The position numbers and the translations under genes were made by a program. Positions 16,994 through 54,583 of a DNA stretch of 64,000 nt are shown piece by piece. The notes below the pieces were generated by a model. That model was given only the letters and a program-made list of their open reading frames with translations. It searched no databases and had not been told where the DNA came from. The stretch is from Escherichia coli (lineage in GTDB: Bacteria; Pseudomonadota; Gammaproteobacteria; Enterobacterales; Enterobacteriaceae). The DNA is taken from assembly GCF_024223415.1 (NCBI RefSeq), contig NZ_CP100500.1; one strand, 5' to 3'. How positions within the stretch are numbered: the stretch's first letter is position 1; the number at the start of each line of letters is the position of its first letter.

Positions 16994-17289
16994 AATGGCT
17001 CACTCAAGCTTGCTCACGATTGATTCCAGTAACAAACCGTATTGTGTAATTATTTCTATAGCAGATCGCTATATAGGCTTGTATACATCGAATAATTTGA
17101 AAATCAAAGAGATAGGTAGATTTTCACTCGAAAGTAGTATTACGTGTAAGTGAGGAGTAATTATTGTTCGGTATCAAAGGGAGACAAAAAAAGCGCCCGC
17201 AGGAGATTTAACGGTACTTACTCCTCTTGCTGATTTCCTTATTTTTCAATAAGTAAACAAAAACAAGGGGAGCAAATTATCACAAATAA

Positions 17290-22643: not shown

Positions 22644-22760
22644 GTAACCACTATGCACACACAAAAAAACCGCTTGCCATGCCGCAATCAGTCAGGTTAC
22701 ATTTCCGCTGCACCTCATAAAACGGGTGCCGGGATTGCAACCCCCGCTGACAAACGAAGC

Positions 22761-22790
22761 GCACAACCGCGCCAGCGGTTTTTTTGTGCG
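22761..22790 (+). terminator. rho-independent terminator (possibly bidirectional)
   Basis: gcacaaccgc-gcca-gcggtt followed by tttttt, embedded in a wider palindrome cgcacaa...ttgtgcg. Confidence 0.6.
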
Positions 22791-22966
22791 TACCGTATCG
22801 CCACGTCTTTTTCGCACCAGAATTATGGTGGGGCGTACGGGGCCGACTTCGGTCGGGCCGGTTTCTTCGTTTGCCGGTGGTTGCAACCCTGTACGTCTCG
22901 CCACCCAGAATTGCAACCTCTGGATGGTGAGTATCCAAAAACTCACAAACGAAGAGGCCAAACACC

Positions 22967-34654: not shown

Positions 34655-35149
34655 ATGAGCATGGTCGCAAGACCGGAAGCCGCCCCTGCACGGGACGATA
34701 TCCCCGACACCGACGACGGCGACGCCACCATCACCGCCGGGGCATTCTGGCCGGAGATTGTGCTGCGGGAGCTGCGCCTTGCAGTACGCCTGCCGGGCCG
34801 CATCACCTCCACACGTCTGGCGCACGTTGCCACGGGAGCCGTGGCTCACGTCACGCGGGAGCTGGAAGAGTGGCAGAAGACGCAGTCTGCCGCAGGGTTC
34901 AGCATCCTCGCAGAAGTGCCTGCCGCCACCATCAACGGTGAGAGCGTCAACGTATGGCATTACCGCAACGCCGTCTACAGCGCCACCCGCGCCCTGATTC
35001 TGGAACGCTGGCGGGATGTGGACACCACTGATAAAGGGAACCGCCGGGCTGACGCACTGGATGAGCAGATGGAAGACTTATGGCGCGATGTGCGCTGGTC
35101 CGTGGCAGATATTCTGGGTCGCCCCCGTCTTTTTGCGGAGCTGGTGTGA
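34655..35149 (+). CDS. P2 gpL-like head completion protein
   Basis: 164 aa, conserved position between M and X. Confidence 0.8.
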   Translation: MSMVARPEAAPARDDIPDTDDGDATITAGAFWPEIVLRELRLAVRLPGRITSTRLAHVATGAVAHVTRELEEWQKTQSAAGFSILAEVPAATINGESVNVWHYRNAVYSATRALILERWRDVDTTDKGNRRADALDEQMEDLWRDVRWSVADILGRPRLFAELV

Positions 35150-35346
35150 TGAAAGTGAGGGCACTCCAGGGGGATACCGTCGATTTACTCTGTTTCCGGC
35201 ACTACGGCACCACGCAGGGGGTGACCGCACAGGTACTTGATGCCAATCCCGGGCTCTGCCGCCAGGTAATTCTGGAAGCGGGACAGGAGGTGGAGATGCC
35301 GGAGCCGGAAAAGAAACAGCAACGCGAAAAGGTAAAGCTATGGTGA
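35149..35346 (+). CDS. P2 gpX-like tail protein
   Basis: 65 aa (MKVRALQGDTVDLLCFRHYGTTQGVTAQVLDANPGL...); start overlaps the L stop. Confidence 0.75.
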   Translation: MKVRALQGDTVDLLCFRHYGTTQGVTAQVLDANPGLCRQVILEAGQEVEMPEPEKKQQREKVKLW

Positions 35347-35630
35347 CGGGATTTTTTCAGCGCGTCAGTGACTGGATCACCTTCTGGGCGTCAGTGACGG
35401 CAACAACCATTGGTGTTATGACCATCAGCGAAAAAATTGCGCTGGCCGGGCTGCTTCTGGGGTCACTTTCCGCCATCCATGCCTGGTGCCACCGCAGGCG
35501 TACGGAGCAGGCAATGAAGCGCCGCAATGACCTTATCGCCCGCATCCTGGCACGTTCAGAAAACCGCGAGCTTCACGACGGTGAGAGACGGGCACTGGAC
35601 AGCGTGAGACAGGACGGAGAAGAGCGGTGA
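35340..35630 (+). CDS. holin (P2 gpY position)
   Basis: 96 aa with hydrophobic segments (FWASVTATTIGVMTI, ALAGLLLGSLSAIHAW) then a charged C-terminus; directly precedes the endolysin. Confidence 0.7.
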   Translation: MVTGFFQRVSDWITFWASVTATTIGVMTISEKIALAGLLLGSLSAIHAWCHRRRTEQAMKRRNDLIARILARSENRELHDGERRALDSVRQDGEER

Positions 35631-36172
35631 AACTGCCGGTAAAACGTTATGCGGTGGCGGCCATTGTGGCGCTGGGCGTCTCCATGGCACCCGGTGAACT
35701 GAGAACCTCACGGGAAGCACAGATAAAAATCGCCACCCGGGAAGAGTGCCGGGCGACACCGTACCGTGATATTGCAGGAGTAATGACCGTGGGATGTGGT
35801 TCAACAGGGGGCGTGGAGAACCGGGTTTACGGAGAAAAGGAGGTGGCCCGCCGCTGGGTGAATGACCTGCGGCACGCGGAAAACTGTATCAACCAGAACT
35901 TCAGCGGTGCCGCCATGCCCCAGTCCGCCTTTGAGGCGATGACCGACGCGGCGTTCAACGTCGGCTGTACCGGCCTGATGTGGTACCGGGACAGGAGCGG
36001 CAACCGGCAGCGCACCACCATCTGGAAGCACGCACAGGCGCACCGCTGGGTGGCGATGTGCGGGAGACTGACCGATTTTGTCAACAGTGGCGGACGCCGC
36101 TCACAGGGGCTGGTTAACCGCCGGGAGGAGTTCAGACAGTGGTGTCTTCGCGACACGGGAGGCAGCACATGA
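35627..36172 (+). CDS. endolysin, lysozyme family with an N-terminal signal-anchor-like segment
   Basis: 181 aa from GTG; hydrophobic N-terminus (AVAAIVALGVSMAPG) followed by a lysozyme-like region (ATPYRDIAGVMTVGCGST). Confidence 0.8.
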   Translation: MKLPVKRYAVAAIVALGVSMAPGELRTSREAQIKIATREECRATPYRDIAGVMTVGCGSTGGVENRVYGEKEVARRWVNDLRHAENCINQNFSGAAMPQSAFEAMTDAAFNVGCTGLMWYRDRSGNRQRTTIWKHAQAHRWVAMCGRLTDFVNSGGRRSQGLVNRREEFRQWCLRDTGGST

Positions 36173-36576
36173 GACCGGTTTACGCCGTGATTGTTGCCCT
36201 CATGGTGACCACCCTGACGGCGGCGGCCATGTGGCAGTCATACCGGCTGGGGCGTGCCGGTGAGGCACGTGACGCCGCAGAGCAGCAGCTGGGCGAATAC
36301 AGCCGGGCGCTGCGTGAGTCCTCCGCCGTTATCAGCGATGCCTCCGCCGTACTGCATGAGGTGATGACGCAGCGACAGAAAAGGGCACAGGAAGGAGAAG
36401 TCAGACGTGAACAGCTTCGCGAAATTGCTGCGACGGATGAGTGCGCCGGCACTCTTCCTGACCACCGTTTTACTGACCGGCTGCGCGAACACACGGAACG
36501 CGCCACTGCCCGCGCCCTCCTTCCGGTTCATTCCGGCGGGACTGACGACGGGAACACGGCCCCCGCCCTTCCCTGA
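36169..36576 (+). CDS. Rz-like inner-membrane spanin (P2 lysB position)
   Basis: 135 aa with an N-terminal transmembrane helix (VYAVIVALMVTTLTAAAMW) then a charged helical region. Confidence 0.7.
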   Translation: MRPVYAVIVALMVTTLTAAAMWQSYRLGRAGEARDAAEQQLGEYSRALRESSAVISDASAVLHEVMTQRQKRAQEGEVRREQLREIAATDECAGTLPDHRFTDRLREHTERATARALLPVHSGGTDDGNTAPALP

Positions 36577-36721
36577 ACACCCCACCTGGGGAAATATCGG
36601 GATATGGAGCGACAGCCTCCTGGATGCACTGGAAACCTGCAACGCAGACAAACGGGCCATTGAGGCGATGGAGCGCCGGAGACTCAACCGACAGAACGGA
36701 GAGGCGCATGCTGAAAAGTAA
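36407..36721 (+). CDS. Rz1-like outer-membrane lipoprotein spanin in the +1 frame overlapping the Rz-like gene
   Basis: GTG start with RBS gaaggag; signal plus lipobox (MNSFAKLLRRMSAPALFLTTVLLTG|C) followed by a Pro-rich sequence (PLPAPSFRFIPAGLTTGTRPPPFPEHP). Confidence 0.65.
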   Translation: MNSFAKLLRRMSAPALFLTTVLLTGCANTRNAPLPAPSFRFIPAGLTTGTRPPPFPEHPTWGNIGIWSDSLLDALETCNADKRAIEAMERRRLNRQNGEAHAEK

Positions 36722-37172
36722 ATCCCTGAGCACACACATGAGTACAGCGTGCCGGTGGTGCAGGGCCAACCCGGAAAAGTTCACCGTGTTCATTGAACGT
36801 GGCGGGATAGAGACCACCGGCGAGACGCCGACGTTCGTGTACAACTACCGGCTGGTGATGTTCGTGATGGACTACACGGGCGATCTGGACAACCTGACGC
36901 TTCCACTGATTGTCTGGCTGGCAGAGAACCAGCCGCAGTTGCTGCTTAATCCTGAGCGCAACAACGATATTCAGTTCACGGCGGCCATTAACGACGACGA
37001 CAGCGCGGACGTGCTGTTTGAGCTGCCGTTACGTGAACGCGTGCGCGTCACCCGCAGGGATGACGGCACCCTCATGACAGAACATCTACCGGAGCCGAAA
37101 TCACGCATCCCGCAGGACGGCGACTGGTCACACATTCTGGAGGATGTGACGTGGAACATTGTCACCGGATAA
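36708..37172 (+). CDS. P2 gpR-like tail completion protein
   Basis: 154 aa from MLKSKSL...; the central region (VMDYTGDLDNLTLPLIVWLAENQPQLL) parallels P2 R. Confidence 0.8.
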   Translation: MLKSKSLSTHMSTACRWCRANPEKFTVFIERGGIETTGETPTFVYNYRLVMFVMDYTGDLDNLTLPLIVWLAENQPQLLLNPERNNDIQFTAAINDDDSADVLFELPLRERVRVTRRDDGTLMTEHLPEPKSRIPQDGDWSHILEDVTWNIVTG

Positions 37173-40228: not shown

Positions 40229-42463
40229 ATGAGCACGAGAAAATTCAGAACCCTTATCACCGACATCGGGCTGGCAAAGCTGGCCGCAACAACGGCGCCT
40301 GGCGGTAGACCTGTACGCCTTACGCACATGGCTGTAGGGGACGGCAATGGAGAGCTTCGTCAGCCGCAGAAAAACCAGACATCGCTTTACAATGAGGTTT
40401 GGCGCCAGTCTGTCAACCGCGTCTTCACCGACCCGGAGAACCCGAACCGCCTCATCGCCGAACTGGTCATTCCTCCTGAAACCGGCGGATTCTGGGTGCG
40501 TGAAATTGGTGTGTTTGATGATACAGGTACAATGATTGCAGTAGGAAATACCGCTGAAAGTTACAAGCCCACCAGAGAGGAAGGTTCAGGGCGGGCGCAG
40601 ATATTCCGTGCAGTAATCACCGTCACCTCCGACGCCGTGGTGGAACTGGTCATGGACACAACAACAATTCTGCCGACCACGGACTACATTGATGAGAAAA
40701 TAGCGGAACACGCACGTTCCCGTAACCACCCTGACGCGACACTGACAGAAAAAGGATTCACCCAACTGAGCAGCGCCACAAACAGCACCTCTGAAACACT
40801 GGCCGCCACACCGAAGGCCGTCAAGGCTGCATATGACCTTGCAGCCGGTAAAGCACCCGCCAGCCACACCCACCCGTGGAATCAGATAACAGGTGTGCCA
40901 TCAGCCTCGCTGACGGCAAAAGGCACCGTACAGCTGAGCAGTGCCACAAACAGTGAGTCAGAGACTGAGGCCGCCACCCCCAAAGCGGTTAAAGCCTTAC
41001 ACGATATGGTGACGAGCAAGTATACAGGACAGGATGCAACCACCGGACGCAAAGGCATCGTACAGCTGAGCAGCGCCACAAACAGCAATTCCGAAACACT
41101 GGCGGCCACACCGAAGGCAGTAAGTGATGCACTGAGCATGGCGTTCGTGAAGCCAACAACATCCCTGGGGGAAACAGACCTGAACACTCTGGGGAGTAAG
41201 GAAGACGCGGGAGATTATTACCAGCAGAGTGACTCAGGTGCGAGAACAGACAGAAACTATCCTGTAGAGAAGGCAGGAGAGTTACGCATCCGTGTTGGTG
41301 CATGGGGATTCTGCCAGCATGAATACACGAGCTGGGATCCGCCACGAAAATTTATCAGGACAGTTACCGGAAACTTTAACGGTAACGGCCCATGGTCAGA
41401 GTGGGTGGAGGTGACAAACACAGATGCAACAACTGGACGCAAAGGCATCGTACAGCTGAGCAGCGATACAAACAGCAATTCCGAAACGCTGGCGGCCACA
41501 CCAAGAGCCGTCAAGGCTGCATATGACCTTGCAGCCGGTAAAGCACCCGCCAGCCACACCCACCCGTGGAATCAGATAACAGGTGTGCCATCAGCCTCGC
41601 TGACGGCAAAAGGCACCGTACAGCTGAGCAGTGCCACAAACAGTGAGTCAGAGACTGAGGCCGCCACCCCCAAAGCGGTTAAAGCCTTACACGATATGGT
41701 GACGAGCAAGTATACAGGACAGGATGCAACCACCGGACGCAAAGGCATCGTACAGCTAAGCAGCGCCACAAACAGCAATTCCGAAACGCTGGCGGCCACA
41801 CCAAAAGCTGTTAAAGCTGCGTATGACCTTGCCAACAGCAAAGCCTCGGCAGCCCACACTCATCGCTGGGCTCAGATCACAGACGCCCCTGTTTTTTCGT
41901 CTGTTGCCCGCGTCATCATGGGTAAACAAAGCATAAAAGATATTCTTGATTACCTTGGTTTAGGAGAAGGCTCGACGCTGCCAGTTGGCGTACCCGTTCC
42001 GTGGCCTTCGTCAAGACCACCTGAGGGGTGGTTACAGTGCAACGGTGCCGCATTCACGCGTACAAAATACCCAAAACTGGCGGTGGCCTACCCTGACCTC
42101 AGGCTACCAGATTTGCGCGGGGAATTTATTCGTGGATGGGATGACCTGCGAATGATTGACAGGGGACGCTTATTGTTATCCACACAGGAAGCAACATATA
42201 TTTGTACCGCCATACAGGCGTACCACGGCGTAGCGGGAGGTGCAGATATTCAGGCAGGGATTTCATTTGCATCACATGATAACGACATCATAAACATAAC
42301 CCCTGATCAACCCAGAACCGGTAACGGCATCCTGTACGGCACAAAACCAGTTGACAGATGGGCAATAGCCAGAGCCGGTAAGCTGGTGAGTAATGAAAAA
42401 GACAGATGGATAGCGATCAGACCGCGCAATATCGCTTTTAATTATATTGTGAGGGCAGTTTAA
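40229..42463 (+). CDS. tail fiber protein (P2 gpH-like) with internal repeat modules
   Basis: 744 aa; N-terminus MSTRKFRTLITDIGLAKLAATTAPGGRPVRLTHMAVGDGNGE... is like P2 H. Six copies of the tail-fibre repeat motif (QLSSATNS..ETLAATPKAVKA) and a perfect 251-bp internal duplication. Confidence 0.88.
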   Translation: MSTRKFRTLITDIGLAKLAATTAPGGRPVRLTHMAVGDGNGELRQPQKNQTSLYNEVWRQSVNRVFTDPENPNRLIAELVIPPETGGFWVREIGVFDDTGTMIAVGNTAESYKPTREEGSGRAQIFRAVITVTSDAVVELVMDTTTILPTTDYIDEKIAEHARSRNHPDATLTEKGFTQLSSATNSTSETLAATPKAVKAAYDLAAGKAPASHTHPWNQITGVPSASLTAKGTVQLSSATNSESETEAATPKAVKALHDMVTSKYTGQDATTGRKGIVQLSSATNSNSETLAATPKAVSDALSMAFVKPTTSLGETDLNTLGSKEDAGDYYQQSDSGARTDRNYPVEKAGELRIRVGAWGFCQHEYTSWDPPRKFIRTVTGNFNGNGPWSEWVEVTNTDATTGRKGIVQLSSDTNSNSETLAATPRAVKAAYDLAAGKAPASHTHPWNQITGVPSASLTAKGTVQLSSATNSESETEAATPKAVKALHDMVTSKYTGQDATTGRKGIVQLSSATNSNSETLAATPKAVKAAYDLANSKASAAHTHRWAQITDAPVFSSVARVIMGKQSIKDILDYLGLGEGSTLPVGVPVPWPSSRPPEGWLQCNGAAFTRTKYPKLAVAYPDLRLPDLRGEFIRGWDDLRMIDRGRLLLSTQEATYICTAIQAYHGVAGGADIQAGISFASHDNDIINITPDQPRTGNGILYGTKPVDRWAIARAGKLVSNEKDRWIAIRPRNIAFNYIVRAV

Positions 42464-43644: not shown

Positions 43645-46600
43645 CTAATCTCTGTCACGGAAACTACCGACTGTCTGGCGGATACGGCGTTCCATTTCCG
43701 CACGGACGGCATCACCCACCATTTTTGCCAGTTCGCGCGGGTTTTGCGTGTGAACATCATGCAGGTGAATATGCAGTTCGCCAGTTAATCCCCATGGTGC
43801 CGCCTCACTCTGGCGCGGTCGGGGCGATGCGGGGGATATGGGCTGGCGCACAGCCTCAACCACCGGACGGGATGTTGCCGCCATCACTGGTGTCATTAGC
43901 GGGGAGAACGTCGGCATGACATCGTGAGTCATAACCGGTTTGATCACCGGCGGAACCACTGGCGTAATATTACCGGACAGTACCGGACGGACGACCGGAG
44001 GAATAACCGGCACATTATTCACGGACACCACCGGCTTCACGACCGGCGACACGTTCGCCGTGGTGGATATCAGCGGCGAAACACTGACAGGCGGTGGCGC
44101 TGGCAGCGGTGGCAACGAAGGCACACTGACCGACGGCACCTGCGGCAGTCTGACAGGTGGCTCACTGACACTACCCGGTAACAGGGAAGCTGCGCGGTTA
44201 AAGCGTTCCTCCTTCCACTCACCACGAACGGCCAGCGCTTCCGGCAGGTTTTTAAAGATAATATCGCCGGGACCAGCGCGTTTTTTCGCCTGTTTCGCCT
44301 CATCCAGCAGACCACCGGTGTTATCGACGATTTTGTTCAGGCGGCGCATAGTGCCGGTATTCTCCCCCGTCAGGGGTGGTTGCCCCCCTTTGGGTTTTTC
44401 GCCGTATTTTTTATCCTCGTCCTTTTTCGGCGGATTAATGACGTTAACATCCGCCAGAAGCATGGCAGCTTTCTCGTTCAGCAACTCCTTCTGTTTTAGT
44501 TCTTCCGCTTTTTTCCGGGCGCGCTCAACCGCTGACGGAATCAGCCCGAGTTTTTCCAGCACCCGGGTTAATGAGTCAATCAGCAGCGTAACCGGACCGG
44601 TCACCAGATTGCTGATAAACTCCCCGACCTTCTGCCCGAACGTCCGCCCGGCTTCCGTGCACTTGTCCAGCTCATCCTTTGTTGTGCTTACCGGCGCGAA
44701 CAAATCCACGAACCACTGCCACACACGCCCGATTGTCTGCCCGACATACTCAAACAATGGTCCCAGTGGTGCCACAGCCTCGCGCAGTGGCGTAAGCCCC
44801 TGCCACAGGCCGGACAAGAACCCGCCCACGACAGCCTTCAGCTGGTCCCAGTGCCGCCAGATAAGCACTGCCGCACCGACCAGTGTCGCCACCACAAGGC
44901 CCACCGGACTTAACAGAAAACCCAGCGCCCCGCCAAGTGCGCCCACCGCACCACTCACCATCCCCCACAGTGCGGGCAGACCTGACAGTCTGAGCGCCAG
45001 TATTCCGATACCGCGCCCCAGTGAAATCAGTGCGCCGCCAGGTGAAGTGAACGCAGCCAGCAGACCACCACGCAGCGCGCCAAGTCCCGCCTGCACACCA
45101 CGAAGCCGCCCCGCAACTACGCCCAGCAGTGCAGCAAACCGTCCGGCACCGGAGGTGATACCGACAAACAGCACGCGCCAGCCACCGATACCGCCCAGCG
45201 GACCACCGAGTACGCCGCGCAGCTGCGTCAGTAACGGCAGCGCACGACCGAGGCCGGATGTGCCGGTCAGCAGGGCAAACCCAAGACGCAGTTTTGCCAG
45301 CGGCCCCATCAACACACCAGTGGCAAGTGACAGCGCCCCCATGGCCGCAACCGCAGCCAGCAGTACACCACCGGCAATCAGCAGTTGTTTTGTCAGTTCA
45401 GGGTGCGCCTGAGCCAGCGCGGTGACTTTCGCAATAACCCGGGTGAACGACTGCGTGACAGAACGCAGCGGCCCGTCAACGAGGTCAGCGATACGGATAC
45501 GCAGTCCTTCCCATGCGCTGTTCAGTGATTTCAGGTCACCGTCCAGGTTATCAACCATAACACGGGCAGTCTGATTAAGTTCCCCGGTGGCCAGTTCAAT
45601 CTCCTGCGTAAGACGGGGAAGATTATTTTCCCCCGCCGCAGTGACAAGATTCATCAGGGAAACATAGGACTCCTGCCCGGCAATAGCCCTGAAAAAGGAG
45701 ACCTGCGCGGCATTACCGTATTTTCGGGTGGCCTGGTACAGCTCATTCAGGATATTTTCCATCCGGCGCATGTTCCCGTAAGCATCCTGCGTCTCCACGC
45801 CAAGCTCTTTCAGTGCCATTGCAGCGGCCTTCGGCGGATCAACCAGACGTGACAGACTGGCACGCAGCGCCGTACCTGCATCACTTCCACGGATCCCCAC
45901 ACTGCCAAGGACACCCGTCATGGCTGCCGCCTGTTCAAGGGACAGGCCAAGTGAAGCTGCAACCGGCCCCGTGTACTTCATGGTTTCACCCAGCGAACGG
46001 AGATCCGTATTGGTTCGTGTGAAGGTGGCGGCCAGCGTGTCACCCACGCGATCCATCTGGTCAGCGGACAGACCAAACTGTGTGAGGATATTCGAACTGA
46101 TATCGGCAGTCTGTCCCAGGTCCATCCCTGCAGCCATTGCCAGATCAAGCACGCCGGGTAGCGCCGCCTGTATGGCCTGTGGTGTGAAGCTGGCCATGGC
46201 AAGGAACGCCTGACCGCTGGCAGCATCACCGGCGGTAAACTGCGTTTCAGAGCCCAGCTTAATGGCCTGTTCGCGCAGCGCCTTAAACTGCGGACTGTTT
46301 TTGTCAATACGGGTCAGCGCCTGGACGCGCGACATCTCCTTACCAAAACTGACCGCCGGTTGCAGGAAACGTCCGGCCGCATAGCCGCCTGCCGCCGCCG
46401 TACCAACCGCCGTAAGTCCGACCGTTTTAAGTTTTCCCGCCGTCTCCTGAGCACGGGAATATTGCTGGCGTGCCTGCGTGACACGTGCCAGCGCCTGCCG
46501 TTCGCGTTCCAGCTGGTCGTTGTATTGCTGTGTTCGCCGTATGGCCTGTTGAATGGTGTTGTCACTGCCGGAAAGCGCAATACCGTGGCGCCGCAGCTCA

Positions 46601-46956
46601 CCACCCAGTTCGCGCATTCGCTGAACTTCACGCGCACGGACCTCATTGAGACGCTCAAGTTTGAGGCTCAAATCGTTCATCAGCTTTTTCTGTTTGTCAG
46701 ACAGCACGGTTCCGGCGCGCTGAATTTGCTGAAGTGCGCTTAACTGGCGTTGCGCCCTGACAATGCCGTTTCCGGCCTTGTTTGCAGCCTCGCGGGCGCG
46801 ATCAAATGAACGGGCGTGGCGTTCCAGGTTTTTGATCGCACCCTGCGTTCTCTGTATGGAGTCGCCAAGCTGGCCCATCATGCGACGGGCGTTTTCGGTG
46901 GGACGGGTCAGCCTGTCAACAGCGCTGAAGGCGACCCGTATATCAAGCGTTTTCAT
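43645..46956 (-). CDS. tail tape measure protein (P2 gpT-like)
   Basis: ORF 43645-46992; ATG at 46956 (MKTLDIRVAF...) overlaps the predicted E' stop, giving ~1103 aa. Long helical N-terminus and Gly/Ala-rich membrane-like core typical of tape measure proteins. Confidence 0.85.
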   Translation of the reverse strand: MKTLDIRVAFSAVDRLTRPTENARRMMGQLGDSIQRTQGAIKNLERHARSFDRAREAANKAGNGIVRAQRQLSALQQIQRAGTVLSDKQKKLMNDLSLKLERLNEVRAREVQRMRELGGELRRHGIALSGSDNTIQQAIRRTQQYNDQLERERQALARVTQARQQYSRAQETAGKLKTVGLTAVGTAAAGGYAAGRFLQPAVSFGKEMSRVQALTRIDKNSPQFKALREQAIKLGSETQFTAGDAASGQAFLAMASFTPQAIQAALPGVLDLAMAAGMDLGQTADISSNILTQFGLSADQMDRVGDTLAATFTRTNTDLRSLGETMKYTGPVAASLGLSLEQAAAMTGVLGSVGIRGSDAGTALRASLSRLVDPPKAAAMALKELGVETQDAYGNMRRMENILNELYQATRKYGNAAQVSFFRAIAGQESYVSLMNLVTAAGENNLPRLTQEIELATGELNQTARVMVDNLDGDLKSLNSAWEGLRIRIADLVDGPLRSVTQSFTRVIAKVTALAQAHPELTKQLLIAGGVLLAAVAAMGALSLATGVLMGPLAKLRLGFALLTGTSGLGRALPLLTQLRGVLGGPLGGIGGWRVLFVGITSGAGRFAALLGVVAGRLRGVQAGLGALRGGLLAAFTSPGGALISLGRGIGILALRLSGLPALWGMVSGAVGALGGALGFLLSPVGLVVATLVGAAVLIWRHWDQLKAVVGGFLSGLWQGLTPLREAVAPLGPLFEYVGQTIGRVWQWFVDLFAPVSTTKDELDKCTEAGRTFGQKVGEFISNLVTGPVTLLIDSLTRVLEKLGLIPSAVERARKKAEELKQKELLNEKAAMLLADVNVINPPKKDEDKKYGEKPKGGQPPLTGENTGTMRRLNKIVDNTGGLLDEAKQAKKRAGPGDIIFKNLPEALAVRGEWKEERFNRAASLLPGSVSEPPVRLPQVPSVSVPSLPPLPAPPPVSVSPLISTTANVSPVVKPVVSVNNVPVIPPVVRPVLSGNITPVVPPVIKPVMTHDVMPTFSPLMTPVMAATSRPVVEAVRQPISPASPRPRQSEAAPWGLTGELHIHLHDVHTQNPRELAKMVGDAVRAEMERRIRQTVGSFRDRD

Positions 46957-47469
46957 GCTCTGCGTTCCCGCTGCGAAGGGCCGCCCGCTCACGCCAGGCG
47001 ACCACCTCGCCGGGATCCATCAGGAAGATTTCAGCGGGAGACCAGTTGAAAATAACGGCGATATCCGCCACAAAGTCTTCAATGTGCTCAAAGGGCACGA
47101 CGGTTATCAGCCTGCCGTCGCCGCCCCGCTCTTCCCGCCAGAGTCCTGACCGGCCAAAAAATTAACCGCCACCCCGCACAGCTGAATAAAATCAGCGGAC
47201 CCCATGCGCTTAAGCAGAACCTCGTCCAGTCGCGGCGAAGTGACGCGCGGGAGTAACTCAAACATCGCGTCCGTTTTCATGTTCAGCACGTCAAGCAGTG
47301 ACAGCCCGCGCAGTGAACCGGCCTGCTGTACAGCAGGCGTGATTTCCACATACGTGATTTTTTTGTTACCGAGCACAAGGGGCGTTTTCAGCGTCACGCC
47401 GCGCTCACTGGTCACGTCCGCCGCATCAGCACCGTCAGTAACAGGGGCAACAACCGGATTTTCTTTCAT
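46952..47469 (-). CDS. tail assembly chaperone E (47107-47469) and its -1 frameshift extension E+E' (to 46952)
   Basis: 120-aa E ORF ends at 47107. A TTTTTTG slippery heptamer (minus strand, 47155-47161) lies near its 3' end; after a -1 shift the frame runs to a TGA at 46952-46954 that overlaps the T start codon. Confidence 0.7.
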
Positions 47470-50617: not shown

Positions 50618-50869
50618 ATGTTCCGTTGTCCCCTATGCGGTGCATCCGCACGTATCCGCACCAGTCGCAATGAAAATGATTCAGGCACAGTTCGCCTGAA
50701 GTACTACCAGTGCAATAACCTCGAATGCGGGATCGGCTTTACCACACTGGAGGGTTTTAACAAATTCACATCAAAACGCGCCCCGTCGCCGCAGGGTACA
50801 GAGCGGATACCGTGGGAAGATTTTCCGGGATCTCACAGGGGGAATACTCAGATTAATCTTGATATTTAA
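50618..50869 (+). CDS. ogr: Ogr/Delta-family zinc-finger late gene activator
   Basis: 83 aa; MFRCPLCGASARIRTSRNENDSGTVRLKYYQCNNLECGIGF parallels P2 Ogr (MFHCPLC...YHQCQNVNC...) with a C4 zinc finger (C4, C7, C32, C37). Confidence 0.85.
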   Translation: MFRCPLCGASARIRTSRNENDSGTVRLKYYQCNNLECGIGFTTLEGFNKFTSKRAPSPQGTERIPWEDFPGSHRGNTQINLDI

Positions 50870-51804
50870 GAACAATAATCAGGTTGAGAGGACATCATAA
50901 GGCAAGTAGATTAACGGCAGATACTTTCCCGCAACCACGGGCAAGTATTTAATTATCCATGATGAAATATGACCTAAATTGTTTTTTGCCCGCCGGAAAG
51001 CGGGCATTTTTTTATTCTTTTGTGGTTATGGGGTCATCAGGAACCACGTGCAGATTATATTTTTGTTTTTTTGGCGTTCCTCCGGCAGCAACGAGTTCAT
51101 CAATAAGACACTGACACGCCTGAACATCCCGGGCATGTCTTAGTTTCACCTTTATTGATTTAACCTTATCCTCACCGGAGGAGAAATGCAGTTCAATCTC
51201 AATATCGTTTCTTCGGAACAATCTCATACGCCCCCTGAATATATCAGAAATACTAGTATCGAAAAATGAGAAAACAGTTAGACAGGAGAAACATATTAAC
51301 ACAAATCATTTATACCTATAGATGAAATTATAATTTCATTCATGAATATGATAGATAACTATATTGTGAACAAAATGAAAAATGGCTAAATTAAAAATGG
51401 GCATGGAGGAATGCCCGGTTATCAATATAATGTGACGTAGATCATTGTTTTGCCCGCCGGAGAGCGGGCATTTTTTTTGCGCCTGCCATCGAGGCGCCTT
51501 CCCTGGCGCACACAAAGCAGCCCTGATTTTCCATGAAAACTTCAGGGTTGAGCTGCGGGCACAAAGTGAGTAGATTAGCTACGGGTACCTCCCCCTGACA
51601 ACAGGAAGGGTGTCCATTATCCATGATATACAAACGAAAAGTCTTGTTTTTTGCCCGCCGAAGCGCGGGCATTTTTTTATGCATCAGACAAGATACAGCC
51701 CACCCCAACTGACACCTGAAATATTGCCGCAACAAAAAGAAACAGTTAAATTACGCGCGGGTGCCTTTCGGCTGATGGCCGGAGGGAAAACCTGAAGGCC
51801 GGAT

Positions 51805-52038
51805 GTGGAAAGGCCCCGGAAAACATTTCTGTTTAACCGAGGCCCTAACCGCATTACCTTGACAAGTGAAAGGTTAGCGCCTCTCCGGAAAAGGAGCAAG
51901 TGCTATGTCGCAAAAATCGCTTACGGCCATCACGTTCTGCGTGACGGCAATCCTCATCATCTGGATATTGCACGGTTCGCTGTGCGAAATACGGATGAGC
52001 TTCTGGGGAGCGGAGTTTGCGGCGTTCTTACAATGTAA
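51805..52038 (+). CDS. mok-like overlapping reading frame upstream of and overlapping the hok-like gene
   Basis: 77-aa ORF in a different frame that overlaps the Hok-like ORF, as in hok/mok/sok loci; may be regulatory rather than a stable protein. Confidence 0.35.
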   Translation: MERPRKTFLFNRGPNRITLTSERLAPLRKRSKCYVAKIAYGHHVLRDGNPHHLDIARFAVRNTDELLGSGVCGVLTM

Positions 52039-52045
52039 GAAGTAA
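51905..52045 (+). CDS. Hok/Gef-family type I toxin-like small membrane protein
   Basis: 46 aa, MSQKSLTAITFCVTAILIIWILHGSLCEIRMSFWGAEFAAFLQCKK: N-terminal transmembrane helix plus the conserved SLCEI...AAF... C-terminal pattern of Hok proteins. RBS aaaggag upstream; terminator at ~52140-52170. Confidence 0.7.
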   Translation: MSQKSLTAITFCVTAILIIWILHGSLCEIRMSFWGAEFAAFLQCKK

Positions 52046-53909
52046 GGAAACCGCGACGGGGGAGCAATCCCCCGTCAATCGGTTGCCAGGGTAAGGTCGA
52101 TAAGGCACCCTATCTCACAGACATGAACAAACAAACCCGCAGCATAAAAACTGCGGGTTTTCTTTTTGGTGTCCTCACCGACTTGAAACAGTGATCAGAC
52201 TATAAGACAAAGCCCGCAATGTTGCGGGCTTACTCTACCTCTCGAAAATGTGGTCACTGCGTGGACATACGCTGATACAAATCCTTTATATCAATAAATT
52301 AAATCTTTGTTTTTTTCATCAACAATGATTTAACCTTATCCTCACCGGAGGAGAAATGCAGTTCAATCTCAATATCGTTTCTGTGGAACAGCCTCATAAG
52401 ACAACCTCCTGAATTCATCAGAAACACAGTCAACTGAAAACCAGAAAGCAGACAAACAGTGGACACACATTAATACAAATCATTTATACCTATAGATGAA
52501 ATTGCAGTTTCATCTATAACATGACAGGTAACAATATTGTGAAAAAACTCAAAACTCGTTAGATTAAAGACGGACAGAGCAATGCTACTTTATCAATAAC
52601 ATGTAACCTGTACTTCCTTATTTTGCCCGCCGAAGCACGGGCATTTTTTTTGCGCCTGCCATCGAGGCGCCTTCCCTGGCGCACACAAAGCAGCCCTGAT
52701 TTTCCATGAAAACTTCAGGGTTGAGCCAAAAGCACAAAGACAGTAGATTAACCACGGGTGCCTTCCACCTGACAACAGGAAGGGTGTCCAGTATCAATGA
52801 CAGACAACTCACATTGCTGTTTTGCCCGCCGGAAAGCGGGCATTTTTTTATTCTTTTGTGGTTATTGGGTCATCAGGAACAACATGCAGATTATGCTTTG
52901 ATTTTTTTGGTGTTATTACAGCAGCAACGAGTTTATTAATAAGACACTGACATGCCTGAACATCCCTGACATATCATAATATCACTTTATTTTTTTAGCT
53001 TGTCCTTTCTGGAGCAGAAATATCTCAACATCGTTTCTGTGGAACAACCTCATTTGCCCTTGAATGTATCATAAATATCAGCATCGGAAAACCAACAGCA
53101 ATACAGAAGAAACATGTTAATGCAAATCACTTATACCTATAGATGAAATTACAGTTTTGTTCATAAATATGATAAGTAACTATATTGTGAATAAAATGAA
53201 AACTAGCTAAATTAAACGTGGGCATGGTGGAATGCCTCGTAATCAATAATACATGATCCGTACTTCCTTGTTTTGCCCGCCGGAAAGCGGGCATTTTTTT
53301 GGCGGTTACCATCGCCTCACCTTCCTGGTTCACATGAAGCAACCCTGATTTTCCATGAAAACTTCAGGGTTGAGACAAAAGCACAAAGACAGTAGATTAA
53401 CCACGGGTACCTTCCACCTGACAACAGGAAGGCTGTCCAGTATCAATGACAGACAACTCACATTGCTGTTTTGCCCGCCGGAAAGCGGGCTTTTTTTGGC
53501 AGTTATCATAGCCGCACCTTCCTGGCACATATGAAGCAACCCTGATTTTCCATGAAAACTTCAGGGTTGAGACAAAAGCACAAAAACAGTAGATTAACCA
53601 CGGGTGCCTGCCACCTGACAACAGGAAGGGTGTCCATTATCCATGATATACAAACGAAAAGTCTTGTCTTTTGCCCGCCAAAGCGCGGGCATTTTTTTAT
53701 GCATCAGACAAGATACAGCCCACCCCAACTGACACCTGAAATATTGCCGCAACAAAAAGAAACGGGTGCCTTTCGGCTGATGGCCGGAGGGAAAACCTGA
53801 AGGCCGGATGTGGAAAGGCCCCGGAAAACATCTGTGTTTAACCGAGGCCTGACCCTTCCTACCGTGACAAGTGGAAGGTTAGCGCCTCTTTGTAAAAGGA
53901 GCAAGCGCT

Positions 53910-54050
53910 ATACCGCAAAAAACGATTATTGTTGGCATTTTATGCCTGACAATAACCCTGGTCATCTGGATGGTCCACGATTCGTTATGTGAATTCAGCT
54001 TTGATATCTGGGGAGCGCGTTTTGCGGCGTTCTTGCAGTGTAAACCGTAA
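53910..54050 (+). pseudogene. second Hok-family copy with a non-canonical start (ATA in place of ATG)
   Basis: Same frame and context as the first copy (...ggagcaagcgctATAccg...) giving (I)PQKTIIVGILCLTITLVIWMVHDSLCEFSFDIWGARFAAFLQCKP; ~60% identical to copy 1. The upstream mok-like ORF (53810-53992) is present. Confidence 0.5.
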
Positions 54051-54583
54051 GAAACCGCAGCGGGGGAGAAATTCCCCGCTATCCGGTTGTTGGGGTGGGC
54101 CGATATGGCGCCCTTTCCCTGTAGAGACAAAACAAAAAACCAGATTTGCCCGCCATTGAGAGGGCTTTTTTGTCACCCTCACCAGTGAGGGCATCATCAT
54201 TCAGAGGCGCGTAAGCCACCCGGCGTTAACATCCTGCCTGTCAACCCTGGCCGCAGAGTCTGAACGGCAGGTACCGGAAGGAGTACCAAAAACATCCCTG
54301 ACAAGTTCCGCCACCTTCCCGATATCATCAGGTGTCACATTCCTCACCTCGGCAGTGATCCGTGGCGTACCATCATCGTTAACAAGAGTGGCTTTAAAGC
54401 TGGTGCGAAGGGAAAACAACATCAACATCCCCTCCCTTTGGTTCGTTGCACTGACGGCACGACACCATCAGGAAAAAGAAAAGCCCACAACGTCAGTATT
54501 GTGGACTTTTTTCTTCAAAGATGGACATTATCTGGACACATGAAAATAAAATCCATTTATTTTCATATAGTTAAGTACCATGC

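Follow-up and report, generated by a model that had tools for sequence, protein, structure and literature searches.

In phage lambda the gene Rz1 is wholly embedded in Rz, and the mature Rz1 protein, at 40 aa, is much shorter than the LysC protein described here. Together the two products define the paradigm for two-component spanins, in which an inner-membrane anchor and an outer-membrane lipoprotein form a complex that spans the periplasm and fuses the membranes after the murein has been degraded (PMC6139136). Phage P2 is the type of the "overlapped" spanin architecture, in which the o-spanin gene has its start codon within the i-spanin gene, in a different frame, and its end past the stop of the i-spanin gene; this is the commonest class, accounting for 228 of 528 two-component systems (Kongari et al. 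2018, PMC6139136). The P2 lysC gene begins within lysB, in its +1 frame, and has its stop out of frame in the tail gene R (Lynch et al. 2010, PMC3091744). On the P2 genome (NC_001895), lysB lies at 7922–8347 and lysC at 8202–8492, in the +1 frame and with 145 nt beyond the end of lysB; R, which begins at 8455, overlaps lysC by 38 nt.

Results

An overlapped gene pair in the lysis cassette of a P2-like prophage

The window analysed here is a stretch of 64,000 nt from an Escherichia coli chromosome that is colinear with strain TUM1886 (NZ_CP128970) and 98–99.4% identical to it. Between dmsA and serS it carries a P2-like prophage (Peduoviridae) of about 34 kb, which is apparently intact and reaches from an integrase near 17.3 kb to ogr near 50.9 kb. 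Positions 36169–36721 very probably constitute the spanin module of its lysis cassette, laid out in the overlapped manner of P2. The relevant features, all on the plus strand, are as follows.

35149 to 35346, plus strand: tail protein X gene (Pfam PF05489 Phage_tail_X, E = 1.5e-20)
35340 to 35630, plus strand: holin gene, 96 aa (PHROG 1350 holin, E = 7.4e-23)
35627 to 36172, plus strand: SAR-type endolysin gene (GH24 lysozyme) with a GTG start (Pfam PF00959, E = 1.4e-21)
36169 to 36576, plus strand: i-spanin gene (LysB/Rz analogue), ATG 36169 to TGA 36576, 135 aa (PHROG 214)
36392 to 36397, plus strand: Shine-Dalgarno sequence AAGGAG for lysC, inside lysB codons (read from the sequence)
36407 to 36721, plus strand: o-spanin gene (LysC/Rz1 family), GTG 36407 to TAA 36721, 104-aa precursor (PF23793)
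36470 to 36484, plus strand: lipobox codons for L-L-T-G-C (PS51257-style rule); Cys26 is the first mature residue and putatively lipidated
36708 to 37172, plus strand: tail completion gene R, ATG 36708 (Pfam PF06891 P2_Phage_GpR, E = 3.7e-38)

Holin, endolysin and lysB/lysC follow one another in this order, with successive genes overlapping by 4 nt and the spanin pair adjoining the endolysin. The X gene forms the left border of the cassette, as it also does in P2. The lysC gene lies in the +1 frame of lysB, overlaps it by 170 nt and continues for 145 nt past its stop, and its 3′ end overlaps the first 14 nt of R; the R profiles (P2_Phage_GpR and PHROG 65) match from the Met at 36708 as residue 1. 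A sequence-only reading of this DNA had placed an Rz1-like gene from GTG 36407 to 36721, past an Rz-like stop at 36576 and into the start of R, and all of these coordinates proved correct. That reading also implied that an o-spanin gene running past the Rz-like stop into R was unusual; it is, in fact, the arrangement of P2 itself, where lysC likewise extends 145 nt beyond lysB. Both P2 and the prophage have the spanin pair between the endolysin and R, and in both lysC ends out of frame inside R, the overlap with R being 14 nt in the prophage and 38 nt in P2. The pair has the features of an overlapped two-component spanin in its geometry, its lipobox with a residue other than Asp at +2, the single transmembrane domain (TMD) of its i-spanin, and its position in the cassette. 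Three antisense ORFs on the minus strand (36180–36506, 36238–36735 and 36470–36844) cover the spanin locus; none has a PHROG match, and we dismissed them.

Of 5426 complete E. coli genomes, 25 contain the lysis region, with the same lysC, at an identity of at least 95%. Sequenced phages are more distant: a megablast search of the phage collection with the cassette returned no match, and relatives surfaced only in a distant-mode search, the nearest sharing 66–74% nucleotide identity with the cassette.

The 36407 product is a LysC-family protein and a probable lipoprotein

The product of the +1 frame matches the Pfam family PF23793, LysC (Rz1-like lysis system protein), with E = 4.6e-13 and a score of 49.3 bits, the cut-off being 27, and the match spans positions 2–67 of the 69-position profile. 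It also matches PHROG 3001 and 456, both Rz-like spanin families, while NCBIfam has no model for either LysC or the holin. The 104-aa precursor begins with MNSFAKLLRRMSAPALFLTTVLLTG followed by the lipobox Cys, and thus shows a basic n-region (K6, R9 and R10), a hydrophobic core and a lipobox in that order. The stretch LFLTTVLLTG-C agrees with the PROSITE PS51257-style rule and makes Cys26 the first residue of the mature protein, and Ala rather than Asp occupies the +2 position, which is compatible with outer-membrane sorting. The mature protein of 79 aa has nine Pro, all within mature residues 8–34, and one further Cys. The lipobox (LLTG-C) and Pro-rich body described by the sequence-only reading are thus both present; our lipoprotein assignment draws on the pattern rule together with homology.

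Conservation of the frame extends well beyond the prophage. An ORF in the +1 frame with a lipobox is also found in phiT5282H, ST16-OXA48phi5.4, P88 and P2, and a tblastn search with the LysC of the window reached 98 phage records, including Mu, D108, SfMu, SfII, APSE and many Klebsiella P2-like phages. In an alignment of seven homologues that includes P2 LysC, the lipobox Cys is invariant, as are the second Cys (in a CNADK motif) and an L..AL..C motif. The closest sequenced relative of LysC and of the C-terminal half of its partner is found in phage P88 (Xuanwuvirus), in a DUF2570 i-spanin and a lysC that shares with its prophage counterpart the GTG start with Shine-Dalgarno sequence, the geometry of the overlap and the overlap with R, although the P88 record does not annotate lysC. 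Nucleotide identity to P88 is 47% in the part of lysB that lies outside lysC (36169–36406), which is essentially unalignable, as against 69% in the overlap and 72% in the part that belongs to lysC alone. In this last part, differences from P88 fall on the first, second and third lysC codon positions in the numbers 8, 6 and 18, a bias towards third positions that we read as the signature of purifying selection in the lysC frame.

One may postulate that the +1 frame is simply a chance open frame in G+C-rich DNA and that lysB is the sole gene here. Long ORFs that are not genes are indeed abundant, and the length of the lysC ORF by itself is not evidence, since this G+C-rich window of 64 kb contains 129 ORFs of at least 100 aa in its six frames; neither is the lipobox pattern significant by itself for lysC, as 5 other ORFs of 289, all spurious, contain a relaxed form of it. 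Such a chance frame would not be expected to match PF23793 above the gathering score and the PHROG spanin families as well, to encode a protein 67% identical in amino acids to P88 LysC while the upstream lysB-only DNA is unalignable at 47%, to accumulate substitutions mainly at its own third positions, or to keep the lipobox Cys invariant. In our assessment, the family-profile match and the conservation across phages put the lysC ORF far beyond chance; the profile match and the codon-position pattern already refute a chance origin, to which we assign a negligible probability. Gene structure, family memberships, signal features and evolutionary constraint of the pair can be stated as direct observations.

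GTG 36407 as the probable start of LysC translation

The strong ribosome-binding site that had been proposed for lysC is present as AAGGAG at 36392–36397, 9 nt before GTG 36407. A GTG 25 codons before the lipobox Cys, accompanied by a Shine-Dalgarno sequence, has been kept in three diverged lineages; P88, L008 and phiT5282H all have a GGAG-type sequence at an equal distance before the GTG, and in P88 this GTG is the first possible lysC start after a stop codon. P88, phiT5282H and ST16-OXA48phi5.4 retain the ORF together with its lipobox Cys and its GTG with Shine-Dalgarno sequence, so the gene passes the test of conservation in related phages that the sequence-only reading had named as able to refute it.

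Database annotation differs from this gene model. In the prophage of TUM1886, which is 99.4% identical, PGAP calls lysC from ATT 36530 as a protein of 63 aa that has neither signal peptide nor lipobox; it also calls the lysozyme from ATG 35684, which cuts off the SAR segment, and leaves the holin and the i-spanin as "hypothetical", although RefSeq does name lysC. If the annotated model were right, lysC would not be a lipoprotein gene at all. We consider this very improbable: ATT is very rare as a start codon and no Shine-Dalgarno sequence precedes 36530, and a 63-aa product could not act as an o-spanin, since without a signal peptide it could not reach the outer membrane. The 41 codons upstream, with the lipobox, the charges of the n-region and the GTG with its Shine-Dalgarno sequence, are moreover conserved in P88, phiT5282H and the database homologues P0002 and P0010. 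O-spanins that are missed or started at the wrong codon are also a documented annotation artefact, with 196 missed and 64 wrongly started among 528 systems (Kongari et al. 2018, PMC6139136). The gene model of the sequence-only reading is biologically better than that of the database.

A less drastic alternative accepts lysC as a lipoprotein gene and places its start at TTG 36425 or ATG 36437, both of which are in frame and upstream of the lipobox; relatives in RefSeq are often called from the equivalent ATG (e.g., P0004, MHVPALF...). Neither codon has a Shine-Dalgarno sequence, however, whereas AAGGAG stands 9 nt before GTG 36407, and the product of ATG 36437 (MSAPALF...), whose n-region is without K and R, does not satisfy the PS51257 rule. 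Since three lineages have also kept the GTG at 25 codons before the Cys, we regard a start at either codon as unlikely, though less so than the ATT start, and retain GTG 36407.

The i-spanin and its relation to P2 LysB

The 36169 product matches PHROG 214, an Rz-like spanin family, with E = 1.3e-25, and with the PF23793 and PHROG memberships of the 36407 product this bears out the proposal that the two genes form a spanin pair. Its sole hydrophobic segment is an N-terminal TMD at residues 4–20 (Kyte-Doolittle hydropathy 2.14), beyond which a highly charged, helical periplasmic part with a single Cys (Cys92) is predicted. Against the NCBIfam equivalog model for P2 LysB (TIGR03495 phage_LysB) the protein scored 17.8 bits and did not reach the cut-off of 92.75, and it reached no family threshold in Pfam. 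As both the TIGR03495 and the Pfam thresholds were missed, we name the product an i-spanin and not a LysB orthologue, an assignment that we base on PHROG 214, topology and gene position; lysB is used here as a gene name in the sense of an analogue.

Comparison with P2, as called for by the sequence-only reading, gave the same architecture with strongly diverged proteins. P2 LysC is also a member of PF23793 (64.9 bits, E = 6.2e-18), and both LysC proteins have a lipobox Cys, a proline-rich N-terminal part and the conserved L..AL..C motif. They are only 24% identical in amino acids, and pairwise BLAST between them gives at best a marginal match; P2 LysB and the prophage i-spanin likewise have no significant pairwise match. 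Homology to P2 LysB and LysC is therefore found at the profile level only. In prophage lysC we found no terminator-like site that would be the counterpart of P2's annotated attenuator hairpin (folding z-scores 0.37 and −0.53).

A holin and SAR endolysin unlike those of P2, and no lysA

P2 has lysA upstream of its spanin genes, together with a non-SAR endolysin, K, and the holin Y, whereas the prophage has a SAR endolysin, a holin with two TMDs and no lysA. The holin has two hydrophobic segments, at about residues 13–29 and 33–49, and a long charged C-terminus, which corresponds to a class II topology; besides PHROG 1350, it has a weak match to the Pfam HP1 holin family (E = 8e-4) that is below the cut-off. 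T, S, A and G abound in its TMD1 (WITFWASVTATTIGVMTI), and its gene forms a pair with that of a SAR endolysin. A search for a dual-start antiholin motif in the holin gave nothing convincing: there is no in-frame upstream start, and Met1-Val2 follow each other without an intervening charge. The holin is a possible pinholin (S21 type), and its SAR-like TMD1 together with the SAR endolysin may point to a pinholin-type pathway that would need no separate antiholin.

In the endolysin, residues of about 8–24 are weakly hydrophobic (YAVAAIVALGVSMAPG), with a hydropathy maximum of 1.7 at residues 9–25, and 8 of the 16 residues of the SAR segment are A, G or S. The catalytic E-8-D-5-T motif can be read directly from REECRATPYRDIAGVMT and EECRATPYRDIAGVMT. 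The best relative of solved structure is the Lyz protein of phage P1 (1XJT, E = 6.9e-36), in an alignment that includes the N-terminal SAR segment; R21 of phage 21 (3HDE) is a weaker match. P1 Lyz is a disulfide-caged SAR endolysin, and R21 represents an alternative type of regulation. Where P1 Lyz has Cys51, however, the prophage endolysin has Asp, and its SAR segment has no Cys, so that disulfide caging in the P1 style would be impossible; regulation of this endolysin, if any, would have to be of the R21 type.

The sequence-only reading had also remarked that the cassette appears to lack a lysA-like gene, and our searches agree. The endolysin stop (36172) overlaps the start of the Rz-like gene in ATGA, which leaves no room for a gene between the two, and the best tblastn hit of P2 LysA in the whole window has E = 0.64. 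The implication that this absence is odd did not hold. P2 LysA has homologues in 79 phage records, 75 of them with at least 90% identity to it and the other 4, Erwinia phage EtG among them, with less than 60%, and LysA thus appears confined almost entirely to P2's closest relatives. The endolysin gene is followed directly by the i-spanin gene, with no lysA, in phiT5282H (Novemvirus), ST16-OXA48phi5.4 (Reipivirus) and P88 (Xuanwuvirus). From this sampling of phage sequences, absence of lysA is the norm among Peduoviridae other than P2's genus.

A scenario in which an ancestor of the prophage had lysA and lost it by simple deletion, with impaired timing of lysis as the consequence, would account for the fact that P2 has lysA between K and lysB while endolysin and lysB abut here. 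It is nevertheless highly unlikely. In tblastn searches of the window, P2 Y, K, LysA, LysB and LysC had no significant match, and the holin and endolysin of the prophage are not homologues of Y and K by BLAST: P2 Y belongs to Phage_holin_3_2, while the holin here belongs to PHROG 1350 or is HP1-like and the endolysin is of the GH24/SAR type. The near limitation of LysA to P2's closest relatives, with few distant exceptions among the 79 records, and the lysA-less layout shared by three other Peduoviridae genera also speak against a loss in this lineage. Because the whole holin/endolysin module differs, the lack of lysA did not arise by deletion from a P2-type cassette, and we rejected loss by deletion in favour of module replacement; as judged from these comparisons, the absence reflects a holin/endolysin module unlike that of P2 and not a defect.

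A candidate recombination junction inside lysB

Relationships to P88 change along the cassette. The products of L, X, lysC, R and S are all closest to those of P88, at about 67–78% amino acid identity (69–78% for the flanking L, X, R and S), and LysB matches the P88 i-spanin at 60% identity over its C-terminal 60 residues. In a gene-by-gene comparison, LysB residues 1–75 had no match in P88. Nor does P88 have a counterpart of the prophage holin or endolysin; it has a holin of the lambda S family and an M15 peptidase endolysin instead. The holin and endolysin of the prophage resemble only those of phiT5282H and ST16-OXA48phi5.4, at 52% identity for the holin and 66–69% for the endolysin.

As LysB residues 1–75 are without a match in P88, we place the right-hand junction near 36385, within lysB and just upstream of the Shine-Dalgarno sequence of lysC. 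The i-spanin may accordingly be a natural chimera, in which a block comprising holin, SAR endolysin and some 75 initial codons of lysB was exchanged relative to a P88-like backbone (L, X, the C-terminal half of LysB, LysC, R and S, 60–78% identical) with a right crossover near 36385. We give this interpretation about an even chance. The junction within lysB is a single observation.

Discussion

The pair described here belongs to a known family in a known architecture, and as such is ordinary. Its scientific consequence is small, since it is a textbook P2-type pair, can already be found in 25 complete E. coli genomes and includes a lysC that RefSeq names as such. For localisation, complex formation and membrane fusion, we infer the likely course of events from the lambda and P2 paradigms. 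X, the holin, the endolysin, lysB/lysC and R would be transcribed late as one unit. LysB would be translated from ATG 36169, and LysC independently of it, in the +1 frame, from the internal GTG 36407 with its Shine-Dalgarno sequence AAGGAG. By analogy, LysB would be held in the inner membrane by its N-terminal TMD, with the helical domain in the periplasm, while LysC, after export, would be lipidated at Cys26 and cut by signal peptidase II; we propose that it is then sorted to the outer membrane because the +2 residue is Ala and not Asp. The two proteins would bind through their periplasmic C-terminal parts and so span the periplasm. Once the holin had collapsed the membrane potential, the SAR endolysin would be released and would destroy the murein, after which the LysB/LysC complex would fuse the inner membrane with the outer one and complete lysis.

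The practical value of these results is in annotation. For all four lysis proteins, RefSeq either lacks or leaves unlabelled the localisation signals by which they are defined, and the mis-calls at this locus are instances of the annotation problem that Kongari et al. 2018 described (PMC6139136).

The possible junction inside lysB would also make this locus a clean example of lysis-module mosaicism with the junction inside a spanin gene. If the pattern is general, the TMD and first helix of the i-spanin could be exchanged freely and would move together with the holin and endolysin, while the C-terminus of the i-spanin and the o-spanin would form a co-evolving unit that is physically held together by the overlap of their genes.

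Lysis cassette

Comparison with related phages indicates that there is a mosaic junction inside the i-spanin gene lysB, at ~36385 in the window. On the 5′ side of this position, LysB residues 1-75, like the holin and the endolysin, show no relationship to P88; on the 3′ side, the C-terminal half of LysB, the o-spanin lipoprotein LysC, and R and S of the downstream tail region have 60-71% identity to P88. The holin and endolysin of the window are similar to those of phiT5282H and ST16-OXA48phi5.4 rather than to those of P88.

Several E. coli database proteins (P0015, P0021 and P0023, the last representing 53 member sequences) have the N-terminal part of LysB joined in frame to the C-terminal part of LysC. 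The frame switch occurs in P88-type DNA at a C-run (CCTCCCCCCTTCCC) directly 5′ of the lysB stop; these fusions could have arisen in decaying prophages by insertion or deletion of 1 nt, or they could reflect homopolymer sequencing error. A frameshift in lysB is also found in a further lysC-bearing locus (L008, 2756-3321).

On NZ_CP128970 (strain TUM1886, loci L004 and L006), two genes of the cassette carry the following RefSeq labels, given here at their window positions:

35340-35630, holin, labeled hypothetical
36169-36576, i-spanin, labeled hypothetical

At the same loci, the PGAP model of lysC begins at window ATT 36530 (36530-36721), and its product therefore has neither signal peptide nor lipobox; the lysozyme model begins at window ATG 35684 (35684-36172), so that the SAR segment is lost from it.

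P2 has an annotated transcription attenuator inside lysC, a perfect 8-bp hairpin (GCTGGCAC-GCT-GTGCCAGC; P2 8399-8417, or 1900-1918 of the P2 locus L003). No terminator-like counterpart was found in window 36577-36721, where fold energies were not better than those of shuffled sequences.

Small RNAs and tail genes

Rfam matches above the gathering score were located at 17084-17218, 22710-22785 and 22821-22908 in the window. They are an STnc130 sRNA at the left boundary of the prophage, adjoining the integrase, and an isrK and C4-antisense-RNA pair in the early region, which is similar to the C4 antisense RNA of phages P1 and P7.

The tail-fibre gene region contains a 351-nt direct repeat of ~96% identity (40763-41112 and 41453-41802). 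The tape-measure gene lies beyond it:

43645-46992, minus strand, tape-measure ORF, intact, 1115 aa

The TUM1886 prophage is otherwise 99.4% identical, but its annotation gives this ORF as a truncated pseudogene; being intact, the window copy thus looks potentially functional.

Repeats beyond ogr

Directly past ogr, window 50900-54200 is mostly without annotated genes and holds several diverged (66-95%) direct-repeat modules. Features in and next to this stretch are:

50618-50869, prophage ogr
51905-52045, Hok/Gef-family ORF
~53.9 kb, second Hok/Gef copy, degenerate

In one of the repeat families, three copies were aligned, and each has a GCCCGCC....GCGGGC hairpin with a T-run, which looks like a terminator. 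The repeat modules are probably a tandem set of hok/sok-type loci.
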